64,000 nt of DNA, from the sequence record NC_054910.1, one strand, 5' to 3'. The position numbers and the translations under genes were made by a program. The DNA comes from Escherichia phage EcNP1. A model generated the notes under the pieces. That model saw only the letters and a list, made by a program, of their open reading frames with translations, had not been told where the DNA came from and searched no databases. This document shows, one piece after another, positions 17,521 to 63,542 of this stretch; position 1 is the first letter of the stretch, and every line of letters starts with the position of its first letter.

Positions 17521-18380
17521 TTACACCGCCATTTTTCCTTTAATAGGAGGGTGTGATTCGTAACCTTTAAGAACGAAATCTTTAGGCCTGAGTTTAAGAA
17601 CATATTCCAATTGTTCTTTAGTAGAAAGATAGCGGAATTTATAAGGCAATCCGCCTATTACCAGTTCACAAAGCTCTTTAGGTTCACGACGCAAAATTTC
17701 TTTACATTGTTCTACGTGATTCATATAAATATGAGTATTACCGCCAGAAAATATCAAATCTCCTGGAATAAGATTACACATCTTAGCTACAATATGAACT
17801 AATGCAGCATATGATGCAATATTAAATGGAAGACCGAGGAAAACATCTACCGAACGTTGATACCACTGCAAATCCAAATAGCCATTACGCACATTAAACT
17901 GATAGAACATATGACAAGGCGGTAATGCCATATATTTAAGTTCAGCTGGATTCCATGCAGAAACAATTTGACGCCTATCATTTGGTAGTTTTTTAATACG
18001 ATCAACAACTTCTATAATTTGGTCTACACCGCCAAAATCACGCCATTGTTTTCCATAAATTGGACCAAGTTCACCACTATGATATCCTAAATCTTTTGCT
18101 TGATTTTCGTAATTTTCATCCCAGACTGTTTTGCCTTGAATTAATGAATCATGTTGAATTAATCGCAAATCATTGACATTTATGCTTCCCGATAAAAACC
18201 AAAGGAGCTCAGCAATGCAAGCTTTCCAGGCGAGCTTCTTAGTTGTTACTGCAGGAAAACCTTTACTTAAATCCCAGCGCAATTTAGTACCAAACAAAGC
18301 AATTGTTCCTGTGCCTGTTCGGTCATCGGTTTCGTAACCATTTTCCAGGATATCTTTAATTAAAAATTGGTATTGTTTCA

Positions 18381-60314: not shown

Positions 60315-60941
60315 TTAACCTCTATTCATAAAAGCATTAAAAATTTGGTCATCAATAGAAACATCTACTTTAGACTGTTTTTCTGATGGTAATTCATATC
60401 CACATATTACAATTTTGTGATCAATATCAAAATACACAGAAGCAATATGATTAATGATGTTTTCAGTAAAATCTAAATCAACATCAATATCTTTTTGACC
60501 GCAACCCAAAGGATAAATAATGCGAGTAATTCGATTATCTTTAACAAAGATTCCACCGACATACTCTGTGCTGCGTTTAAAGTCTACACGCCGACGAAAT
60601 GAAAAATATTCAGGCTCTTTATGAGCTCGGCTCATAGGACACAACGAGTAACTAGAATAAGAGATGTCAAATTCTACACCTTCAATATGAGCCAAAGTAT
60701 CATGATTAAACCAATTATAATCGTACGCCAAGTCCATTAGATTATAATATGTAAAAGGCACCGGATTAACATCATTAGTCACAAGCACGTAATTAGCAAC
60801 TGCTATAATTTCGTTGTTTTTAACGAATACAAACCGCGATTGATGCGAATGACCTGGACCTGCGTTTTCACGATTAATGATATAACACTGGGCACCTTTA
60901 TATTTGTACGTGTCTTTGCACTTGTGCATTTGATAAAGCAT
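60315..60941 (-). CDS. hypothetical protein (208 aa)
   Basis: ORF track; start lies in one copy of a 20-bp tandem duplication. Confidence 0.55.
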   Translation of the reverse strand: MLYQMHKCKDTYKYKGAQCYIINRENAGPGHSHQSRFVFVKNNEIIAVANYVLVTNDVNPVPFTYYNLMDLAYDYNWFNHDTLAHIEGVEFDISYSSYSLCPMSRAHKEPEYFSFRRRVDFKRSTEYVGGIFVKDNRITRIIYPLGCGQKDIDVDLDFTENIINHIASVYFDIDHKIVICGYELPSEKQSKVDVSIDDQIFNAFMNRG

Positions 60942-60975
60942 TATTCACCTACCACAAGCATTATTCACCTACCAC
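60936..60975. repeat. perfect 20-bp tandem direct duplication (AAGCATTATTCACCTACCAC x2)
   Basis: Read directly from sequence; spans the sp stop and the start of the downstream 208-aa ORF. Confidence 0.8.
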
Positions 60976-61254
60976 TTCAGCGATGATATTTTTATTATTG
61001 AAGTTTTTATCACAATACAGAACGTAATTATACTGCATTACACCACCAGACTTAAGCTGTTTTTGTACTTCAGCTTTCATTTCAGGGCGATCACGCTCAA
61101 CGATATTCATAATATCTGCTTCAATCTGAGTTTCAACCTCAGTCTGATCTGCGGTCATAGACCATTCACACAAATCTTTATCATAACCTGCCATAGCAGG
61201 CTGAGCAGTACAAGAAGCCAAAGCAAAAATTGCAGCAAAAACAAATTTTTTCAT
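60961..61254 (-). CDS. sp: Spackle periplasmic superinfection-exclusion protein
   Basis: 97 aa, signal peptide MKKFVFAAIFALASCTAQPAMA then GYDKDLCEWSMTADQTEVETQIEADIMNIV; matches recalled T4 Sp. Confidence 0.8.
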   Translation of the reverse strand: MKKFVFAAIFALASCTAQPAMAGYDKDLCEWSMTADQTEVETQIEADIMNIVERDRPEMKAEVQKQLKSGGVMQYNYVLYCDKNFNNKNIIAEVVGE

Positions 61255-61311
61255 GATAATCTCCTCAGTAGTTTATGTTTATATAGTATCTCAATTTCCA
61301 ACAAAAGTAAA

Positions 61312-61566
61312 CTATTTTATTTCCTCAAGTTCGTTAATCAATAAAAGTTCTCTGACGCTAAAAACAAAGAAAAATGTGTTCCCATCAACCAGAGCATGAC
61401 CGCTAATAGAACACCCTCTGCGGAATTTAGAAACTTCACAATCTAGAACTGTAAAGGGTTTTAATCCTATGACTTTAGCTGTGCGTCTATTCAGTTCACA
61501 ACCACTTGCGAATTTTTCCAAATCTTCTTCTGATTTAAACTGATATTCTCTATTAACTAGCATCAT
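61312..61566 (-). CDS. hypothetical protein (84 aa)
   Basis: ORF track; early promoter upstream. Confidence 0.5.
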   Translation of the reverse strand: MMLVNREYQFKSEEDLEKFASGCELNRRTAKVIGLKPFTVLDCEVSKFRRGCSISGHALVDGNTFFFVFSVRELLLINELEEIK

Positions 61567-61595
61567 TTTCTTTTCTCCGCGATTAGCTGATAGAA

Positions 61596-61627
61596 TTACT
61601 ATAACACAACTCTATCAGCTTGTAAAC
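61596..61627 (-). promoter_or_regulatory. early promoter
   Basis: Minus strand GTTTACAAGCTGA..., TATAGT -10, flanked by a 10-bp inverted repeat AGCTGATAGA/TCTATCAGCT. Confidence 0.5.
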
Positions 61628-61650
61628 TACTATTTTACTAGCATCAATAA

Positions 61651-61914
61651 CTATTTCTCTAACTTGGCGATTTTACGAAAGTATCTTTTGCATTGACGAA
61701 TCTGTCGCTTCGTAGGGCGCACAGCAAACTTAATAAATTCCACTCGACCAAATGGAGGGCTTTCTTCTGCTGGAATATCTAATACTAATTCCCACGTATC
61801 TGCGATAAGTGCTTTGAATTGAGTATTTTTCCTGACGTTATACGGAGTAGGTTTAAATAAAACGATATGCATATTATCCTCGGCAATCCACTTCGCATAC
61901 TTTCTTGTCATCAA
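61651..61914 (-). CDS. hypothetical protein (87 aa; internal ATG at about 61872 possible)
   Basis: ORF track; 5' end overlaps dmd by 41 nt, so the true start may be the internal MHIVLF. Confidence 0.45.
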   Translation of the reverse strand: MMTRKYAKWIAEDNMHIVLFKPTPYNVRKNTQFKALIADTWELVLDIPAEESPPFGRVEFIKFAVRPTKRQIRQCKRYFRKIAKLEK

Positions 61915-62056: not shown

Positions 62057-62087
62057 AACAATCTCCTCATTTAACCAACAAGACTAC

Positions 62088-62115
62088 TATACCATAGTCT
62101 TGTCAGCTTGTAAAC
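62088..62115 (-). promoter_or_regulatory. early promoter for dmd
   Basis: Minus strand GTTTACAAGCTGA..., TATAGT -10, with 9-bp inverted repeat ACAAGACTA/TAGTCTTGT. Confidence 0.5.
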
Positions 62116-63542
62116 TAAAATTTTAATTCATTTGCCAAAGCATCTAATTGAGCTCGAGCCGATTCATTTCTTTGATAGCGGTTCTGTTCAGCCTGAATCT
62201 GCTGTGAACCTGCTACTTCGTTCACTTCAGTTGGAGTAGAATCTTGCTCAATTTCTACCCATTTCTGATTTCCTTTTTGAACACCCATCAAAAACTTATT
62301 CCATTTATTCTTATCACCATATCGTGATTTGATTTGCTTAATGAGTTGTTGTTCAGCAGCTGCTAACTCCTCGGTTTCAATGACCGCAAGCATAAAATCG
62401 GCTGTTGCTGGAAGACCGGCAGATTCTGCAATATCGCTCATGTTAACATCAGAAGAATCCCAAGCTTGCTTACCAACTTGTGCTGCGGTCCAAAGAACAG
62501 TTTCGGTTTCAACAGCCAGAGCACGCAATTCCTCTGCGATAGCTTTAACAGTTGTGTAACTATTTTCTGAATAAACTCTGATGCGACAAGATTTACAAAT
62601 ACCTAGATAGTCAACAATAATGATTGTTGGAACAAAATTCTTCTTGAGCTTTAATTCGTTTAAAAGCGATCGAAATGTATTAGCGTCTGCTCCACCAGTA
62701 GGATACTGTTTAACGATTAAACGTCCAAGAGTAGATTTCTCACGCCATTTTTCCATTTTTCCTTTATATTCAGCGTAAGAAATATGCCCATCATCAATGT
62801 CATCAAGAGAAACATCAAGCATATTAGCGTCAATACGCTTAGCACAAACTTCTTCTGCCATTTCCATGGAAATGTAAAGAACATTATGTCCGAGCTGCAA
62901 ATAATCTGCTGCTAATGAACACAATCCTAATGACTTACCAACGTTAACACCAGCCATTAAAACGTTCAGTGTTCCAGTTTCAGCTCCGCCTTTAGTAATT
63001 TTATTTAGAATTTTGAGTCTAAATGGAACCTTACGAGCTTTATTCATATAAGATAGCCAACGTGCTTCGTAGTCATCCATCCAATCATGACCAACGTAGC
63101 TATCAAATGAAATTGATAATGCTTGGCGCATGATGTCAGGAATAGCACCTACATCTGGCATTTTCTTATTTCGTTTTTCCGGAGGAAGCTCAGCATTAGT
63201 TTGAATTTCAATTATTTTAGACGTAGCATTAAACATCGCCCTTTGCTGAACATATTTTTCTGTTTCTTTTACTAACCAGCTGTGGTCTTCTGGAGAATCG
63301 GTTAGTTTCGAAATAAGTGTTTTTACACCAGAATATTCTGTTTCAGTAAATGAACTATTTTCTAATGCAACATTTAACGCATTAATAGATGGAACGCTAT
63401 GGTACTCATTAACATGAGATTTAATTAATTTGAATGTATTTTTAGCTGGACCACTTTCAAAATATTCTAAATCCATATATGGCCAAACTTTTGAAAAATA
63501 AGCTTGATCAAATATGAGATGAGAAAGAATAATTTCTACCAC
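62115..63542 (-). CDS. 41: replicative DNA helicase gp41
   Basis: 475 aa; Walker A GVNVGKS, DnaB-like; T4 gp41 length. Confidence 0.95.
   Translation of the reverse strand: MVEIILSHLIFDQAYFSKVWPYMDLEYFESGPAKNTFKLIKSHVNEYHSVPSINALNVALENSSFTETEYSGVKTLISKLTDSPEDHSWLVKETEKYVQQRAMFNATSKIIEIQTNAELPPEKRNKKMPDVGAIPDIMRQALSISFDSYVGHDWMDDYEARWLSYMNKARKVPFRLKILNKITKGGAETGTLNVLMAGVNVGKSLGLCSLAADYLQLGHNVLYISMEMAEEVCAKRIDANMLDVSLDDIDDGHISYAEYKGKMEKWREKSTLGRLIVKQYPTGGADANTFRSLLNELKLKKNFVPTIIIVDYLGICKSCRIRVYSENSYTTVKAIAEELRALAVETETVLWTAAQVGKQAWDSSDVNMSDIAESAGLPATADFMLAVIETEELAAAEQQLIKQIKSRYGDKNKWNKFLMGVQKGNQKWVEIEQDSTPTEVNEVAGSQQIQAEQNRYQRNESARAQLDALANELKF

Follow-up and report, generated by a model that had tools for sequence, protein, structure and literature searches.

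The junction of the genes sp and adfA in Escherichia phage EcNP1 (NC_054910.1) carries a perfect 20-bp tandem duplication which is present in independent read sets, is rare among phages and leaves both ORFs intact. In the window, by which we mean the whole stretch of 64,000 nucleotides that was analyzed, the unit AAGCATTATTCACCTACCAC stands twice on the plus strand, at 60936-60955 and again at 60956-60975, in direct orientation and without any spacer. With a probability that we place at about 0.7, this is a young and tolerated duplication of the sp/adfA coupling junction, near-neutral in its effect, which would be translated as a relay and which lies in a mosaic block. Mutations of this kind are ordinary; what makes it mildly interesting is its position immediately before an anti-defence gene.

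Structure of the duplicated junction

A perfect 20-bp tandem duplication at this place had been claimed in a previous sequence-only reading of the same DNA, and it was borne out by direct reading, by TRF and by an exact-periodicity scan. The two copies are 100% identical and number exactly 2.0. TRF ranked the array as the top tandem repeat of the window (period 20, 2.0 copies, 100% matches, score 80), and the scan returned it as the sole perfect tandem duplication with a period of at least 10 in the 64 kb. The periodicity does not extend into the neighbouring bases: it ends at exactly 40 bp, and the flanks differ (a/c, a/t), leaving zero flanking microhomology. A search for the 20-mer with at most 3 mismatches gave these two sites and no other in the window, while in 100 dinucleotide-preserving shuffles its mean number of matches was 0.02 and none of the 100 reached two. 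The copies are adjacent and direct, the relatives are single-copy and the repeat is present in the DNA itself, as in a simple tandem duplication. The duplication is real and no chance event. One further short repeat, a perfect 8-bp unit in 2.25 copies (CCATTTTT, plus strand), was observed inside gene 41 at 62745-62762 of the window; as it is also kept in Escherichia phage 235Ecol030PP (L051 19838-19855), it is old coding sequence and no recent duplication.

The window comes from a T4-like phage (Tequatrovirus); of 50,697 phage records, that of phage P922 matches it best, with 97.4% identity over 12 kb. On the minus strand the genes follow the T4 order, namely 41, dmd, a DUF7279 (61.4/tifA-family) ORF, an 84-aa ORF, sp, 61.2, 61.1 and 61. 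The neighbour of sp, which had been left without a name in the sequence-only reading, is adfA: the 208-aa ORF matches Pfam PF23813 AdfA with E=2e-134 over profile positions 1-211 of 211, and the name also stands in the annotation of PV390659.2. T4 gene 61.2 is now called adfA, and the dmd-tifA-adfA region has been termed an anti-toxin-antitoxin island (PMC9391042). The coordinates of the junction elements and of their surroundings are provided in Table 1.

Table 1. Coordinates of the elements of the sp/adfA junction and of its surroundings in the window.
Feature	Coordinates	Strand	Description
adfA (T4 gene 61.2, anti-DarT factor A)	60315..60941	-	208 aa, MLYQMHK..., full length, intact; Pfam PF23813 AdfA
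Downstream copy	60936..60955	-	SD2 AGGTGA 60945-60950; mini-ORF stop TAA 60941-60943; adfA ATG 60939-60941; overlap TAATG
Mini-ORF	60941..60961	-	ATG CTT GTG GTA GGT GAA TAA = MLVVGE-stop, 6 codons, made by the duplication
Upstream copy GTGGTAGGTGAATAATGCTT	60956..60975	-	Last four sp codons (VVGE); sp stop TAA 60961-60963
SD1 AGGTGA; ATG1	60965-60970; 60959-60961	-	In the upstream copy; ATG1 overlaps the sp stop as TAATG
sp (spackle, T4 gene 61.3)	60961..61254	-	97 aa, periplasmic; Pfam PF25676 T4_Spackle E=9e-45; named after the T4 annotation
Promoter-like site	61598..61626	-	TTTACA-17-TATAGT with TG, 10/12, upstream of the 84-aa ORF; consensus match only
Mismatch-free block, window against DRR827172_97264 and DRR827190_1311	60505..61800		About 1.3 kb, holds the duplication; flanks about 2-5% diverged

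On the coding (minus) strand the 40 bases read GTGGTAGGTGAATAATGCTT followed directly by GTGGTAGGTGAATAATGCTT, and the duplicated unit extends from 14 nt upstream of the ATG to 3 nt past it. As had been stated from the letters, a stop, a ribosome-binding site and a start were copied together: the upstream copy ends sp (GTG GTA GGT GAA TAA, VVGE-stop), and the downstream copy starts the next gene (MLYQMHK). The C-terminus and the stop of sp are unaltered by the duplication, and both ATGs are preceded, 3 nt upstream, by an identical AGGTGA Shine-Dalgarno (SD) sequence. The 6-codon mini-ORF MLVVGE-stop, also foreseen in that reading, does lie at 60961-60941. The mini-ORF shares bases with the sp stop where it begins and with the adfA start where it ends; given the unit of 20 nt and the -1 overlap, it re-reads the copied tail of sp in the same register. 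The rebuilt order is sp-TAATG-[MLVVGE]-TAATG-adfA, with sp and adfA both intact, and the ORFs are co-directional, as in coupled pairs, with TAATG at sp/mini-ORF and again at mini-ORF/adfA. It must be noted for annotation that gene callers would put 20 nt between sp and adfA and leave out the 6-codon ORF.

In addition, TAATGCTTTA (60939-60948, minus strand), formed by the downstream copy and the next bases of adfA, fits the MotA-box consensus WWWTGCTTYA of T4 middle promoters. A MotA-box middle promoter at the junction was rejected, as no TAnnnT was seen by eye 11-13 nt downstream and the fit is probably due to chance. The upstream copy does not rebuild the box (TGCTTGT).

Upstream of sp, between it and the DUF7279 gene, lies the uncharacterised 84-aa ORF (61312-61566, minus strand), which belongs to the proposed anti-toxin-antitoxin island and matched no Pfam family. 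T4 lacks this ORF, sp directly following 61.4 there, and many relatives have it, e.g., P922 and loci L060 and L068. The promoter-like site upstream of it may act as an early promoter, giving a transcript that would comprise the 84-aa ORF, sp, the mini-ORF and adfA. A second promoter-like site (TTTACA-17-TATAGT with an upstream TG, 10/12) was observed at 62086-62114 on the minus strand, upstream of dmd. Both sites resemble T4 early promoters, the total of such sites in the region being no higher than in shuffles. No terminator-like sites were found between the 84-aa ORF, sp and adfA.

Occurrence among related phages

In T4 (NC_000866) the junction has a single copy, ...GTG GTA GGT GAA TAA, the ATG of adfA beginning on the last A of the sp stop, so that the coding sequences overlap by 1 nt. 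The comparison with the homologous junction that had been proposed in the sequence-only reading thus gave one copy with the TAATG overlap in T4 and in T6. In the full-length matches listed, a 400-nt junction query spans 380 bases of the record. A 60-nt query matched 204 phage records, with 40 record bases in every match listed, and the matches listed include T4 (NC_000866, AF158101 and several resequenced stocks), T6, RB55, RB59 and PST. The T4 100-mer of the single-copy junction was located in 491 phage records at 492 places, only one of the 491 having it at two places, while the bare 40-mer with two copies had no match among the 50,697 phage records. Base-level alignment showed the single-copy junction to be near-invariant across 16 loci.

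The 24- to 31-mers of the duplication junction were absent from IMG/VR, where only two contigs hold the junction and the search has little power, and the duplication-junction pattern was absent from JGI metagenome contigs and GTDB genomes. When IMG/VR was scanned with a 15-mer for contigs matching twice, 46 loci came up, almost all of them chance matches in unrelated viruses. An 18-bp duplication beside one IMG/VR match (L022) was discarded, since it belongs to an unrelated virus whose ORFs share nothing with the sp/adfA locus.

The nearest single-copy haplotype is that of vB_EcoM_P8, which is identical to the window over 60838-61152 except for the duplication, and this identity around the junction fits a young event. 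The copy-number states seen are one (491 records) and two (the window and the phage in two Logan runs described below). Since the junction is single-copy in T4, in T6 and in every other phage record matched, the 20-bp duplication is derived and evolutionarily young, in agreement with the recency that had been proposed for it.

Independent carriers and the shared block

The exact AdfA protein of the window was found in four contigs of public assemblies, and the two listed are Logan assemblies of the runs DRR827172 and DRR827190. These contigs, DRR827172_97264 and DRR827190_1311 (L065 and L066), carry the identical 40-mer, and in them sp ends 20 nt before the adfA start. Their mutual identity over 8.8 kb is 100%. 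Against the window it is 97.6%, with 129 mismatches in 5.7 kb, and they therefore come from a different phage. No literature on the DRR8271xx runs was found. Given that a second genome background carries the same duplication, a private mutation of the window phage was rejected. As to conservation across relatives, which the sequence-only reading had counted against a recent event, the allele is indeed shared with this second background (97.6% identity in the flanks, 0 mismatches over about 1.3 kb), but the 491 records are single-copy.

The worry that the duplication might be an artefact of assembly did not survive this finding. In its specific form, contigs or circular ends would have been joined without trimming an overlap of k-1 = 20 bases. 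A de Bruijn graph with k=21 would leave a 20-bp overlap, and exactly 2.0 copies, perfect identity and the lack of microhomology are what such a join would produce. Logan assemblies, on the other hand, use k=31, a length at which no k-mer repeats within the 40-bp two-copy array, so that the path through it must be supported by reads. The identical 40-mer was assembled from two other, independent runs, from a phage that is 2.4% diverged in the flanks, and the 129 mismatches rule out one mis-finished sequence as the common source of the Logan contigs and the window. Furthermore, if such an overlap were placed at random, every ORF would be spared at no more than about 11% of positions. An artefact is therefore extremely unlikely.

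The window and the two contigs share a block without any mismatch that holds the duplication (Table 1). Judged from this distribution of mismatches, the allele lies within a mosaic segment, 60505-61800, that was recently exchanged or is shared between at least two lineages. The duplication would thus cleanly mark a mosaic block, about 1.3 kb long, that Tequatrovirus lineages have exchanged. Another contig, having the exact gp41 of the window (L067, SRR29888910), presents a single-copy junction and a different arrangement upstream of sp, which underlines the mosaicism of the region.

Origin and placement of the duplication

The T4 duplications and deletions that have been described form at microhomologies of 2-10 bp (PMC9391042). 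At the breakpoints of the 20-bp duplication the direct repeat amounts to 0 bp, and hence classical slipped mispairing is unsupported. The slippage that had been suggested in the sequence-only reading does not hold in the form of slippage between short repeats, as flanking microhomology is zero and no convincing near-repeat was seen by eye. The duplication would rather have originated from non-homologous breakpoints, for example by template switching or by fill-in and ligation of staggered breaks, and not from microhomology-mediated exchange.

The tolerance of the genome to such events was modelled on an inferred ancestor, i.e., the window minus one copy, with 109 ORFs and 92% coding. A 20-bp tandem duplication leaves all ORFs uninterrupted at 10.9% of the positions of this ancestor. 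A stop, a leader of at least 12 nt and a start are copied together at 0.44% of positions, the observed event included. The allele survived because it sits in the small fraction of positions where a duplication breaks nothing, a placement to be expected once purifying selection has acted on random duplications.

Predicted consequences for translation

At the doubled junction, ribosomes ending sp, or 30S subunits loading at SD1, would translate MLVVGE; they would terminate at the second TAATG and could re-initiate on adfA. SD2 could also recruit ribosomes directly, and by either route AdfA would still be made. If c is the efficiency of re-initiation, the share of AdfA synthesis that depends on sp would pass from about c to about c squared. 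In addition, two identical initiation sites located 20 nt apart should partly occlude each other, and the net yield of AdfA could shift modestly in either direction. According to a review on translational coupling, TAATG (-1 spacing) is enriched among overlapping co-directional gene pairs (PMC12548453); 11 gene junctions of the window are of the TAATG type and 19 of the ATGA type. Any effect of the duplication on coupling or on AdfA dosage is one that we infer from the arrangement of these signals.

Thermodynamic folding gave a mean unpaired probability of the SD of 0.28 with one copy, vs. 0.33 and 0.36 with two copies. The minimum free energy (MFE) was -25.0 kcal/mol with two copies and -19.2 kcal/mol with one, the new junction adding one modest predicted stem. 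A switch of RNA structure was discarded, since the SD and the AUG are similarly accessible whether one or two copies are folded.

It could be argued that the duplication was selected for altering AdfA dosage, or for uncoupling adfA from sp, by means of a second ribosome-loading site and a leader cistron. Dosage changes by tandem amplification are selected at the neighbouring dmd-tifA, in the anti-toxin-antitoxin island (PMC9391042). The presence of the allele in two diverged backgrounds within an identical block would be compatible with recombinational spread, and the engineered bicistronic (BCD) elements have the same architecture, in which the leader ORF contains an SD and overlaps the next gene as TAATG; the added predicted stem might be counted on the same side. 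We nevertheless consider this adaptive explanation unlikely. The allele is absent from the 491 catalogued relatives, and two carriers with one identical block represent a single origin and no evidence of selection. Moreover, sp was already an upstream coupled cistron in the ancestral arrangement, so that the expected gain is small, and the predicted SD accessibility is essentially unchanged.

Taken alone, the duplication is a minor structural polymorphism whose kind is well understood. The one-copy and two-copy junctions make up a natural pair for studying TAATG re-initiation in series and the dependence of adfA on sp. Given its location before a counter-defence gene, in a region selected for dosage, a measurable effect on escape from DarTG would interest the phage-defence field.

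A possible second duplication and the variability downstream of sp

The record of Escherichia phage 235Ecol030PP (PP355091.1) presents a perfect 141-bp tandem duplication across the sp/adfA junction, at 18096-18377 of the record (L002 769-1050). It has exactly 2.0 copies and no microhomology, sp and adfA are full-length, and a truncated N-terminal AdfA ORF of 41 aa, annotated as hypothetical, stands ahead of the intact adfA. A search for homologues of this 41-aa ORF returned none, the query probably being too short for the word index, and in the literature no paper that mentions the phage was found. Like the 20-bp case, the 141-bp case spans the sp stop and the adfA start, is perfect, consists of two copies and lacks microhomology; its unit belongs to a different haplotype and has different endpoints, one boundary lying 9 nt from that of the 20-bp unit. 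In the 148 kb scanned of 235Ecol030PP it is the only perfect tandem duplication with a period of at least 10. In about 155 kb of other fetched loci (about 111 kb of them T4-like), no perfect duplication with a period of at least 10 was found besides the carriers L065 and L066. It must be considered that PP355091.1 was rotated to the T4 start and that 141 is the default largest k of MEGAHIT. The 141-bp duplication is a candidate from one record, and it may be the untrimmed overlap of a circular contig. Its junction was absent from IMG/VR and JGI contigs.

Phages with an Sp identical to that of the window have, after the sp stop, either adfA (208 aa, -1 overlap), a 118-aa AdfA-like ORF (+12 nt) or no gene before 61.1 (+12 nt). 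This variation was read at about 1490-1510 in loci L070, L072, L073, L074, and L077, and at 2460-2480 in locus L059. Given that the sequences diverge right after GGTGAATAAT, a mosaic or cassette boundary lies at the sp stop. An additional arrangement was observed in the contig k141_28541 of ENA ERZ27230253 (L058 1842-2832), with two AdfA-family ORFs in tandem after sp, of 210 and then 118 aa, and with sp and the first adfA 1 nt apart. In the ENA scaffold ONAT22-1...scaffold_791 (L063 2688-2787), a 100-N gap falls exactly at the expected sp/adfA, suggesting that metagenome assemblies break at this variable locus.

Two duplications at one junction, the second of them a candidate, raise the question of whether breakage or recombination occurs preferentially at the sp stop/adfA start, which would make it a mutational hotspot with recurrent duplications. 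The different haplotype of the 141-bp event and its boundary only 9 nt away would fit such a site, as would the fact that each array is the only perfect duplication with a period of at least 10 in its genome (64 and 148 kb scanned) and that a mosaic boundary coincides with the slot immediately behind the sp stop. This is, however, quite unlikely: the second event comes from a single rotated record, with 2.0 copies, no microhomology and a length equal to the largest k of an assembler; its junction was not recovered in IMG/VR or in JGI contigs, and only 1 of the 491 records has the T4 junction 100-mer at two places. A chance coincidence of the two events has a probability of roughly a few percent, which is not negligible. 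A combined explanation, with sp/adfA as a recurrent and selected target of small duplications (20 and 141 bp) that would retune or uncouple AdfA translation through a leader cistron, appears very unlikely. If true, it would be the nucleotide-scale counterpart of the kilobase dmd-tifA "accordion" amplifications against toxin-antitoxin defences.

Comparison with known systems

The closest arrangement to the doubled junction is the ancestral sp/61.2 (adfA) junction of T4 and the Tequatroviruses, with which it shares the genes, their order, the AGGTGA within the last codons of sp and the TAATG overlap. With respect to that junction, 20 bp are doubled here, the sp stop and the adfA start come to lie 17 nt apart, and a MLVVGE mini-cistron is interposed. 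In relation to termination-reinitiation at -1 TAATG overlaps, both junctions of the array would fit the known pattern, the difference being that two of them stand in series, 20 nt apart.

The synthetic BCD elements also consist of a short leader with its own SD and ATG, a downstream SD placed inside the leader and a TAATG overlap. All of these are found here, as SD1 and ATG1 of the leader, SD2 inside the mini-ORF (60941-60961) and the overlap with adfA. Unlike BCD elements, the present leader is natural, was born from a duplication, has only 6 codons and would itself be coupled upstream to sp.

Finally, the T4 rII duplications and the dmd-tifA "accordion" (Srikant et al., 2022; PMC9391042) are head-to-tail as well, and the latter concerns the same neighbourhood (dmd, tifA/61.4, sp, and adfA). 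The rII and dmd-tifA events range from hundreds of bp to kb, comprise whole genes and have 2-10 bp of microhomology, whereas the duplication described here is of 20 bp, comprises no gene and has 0 bp.
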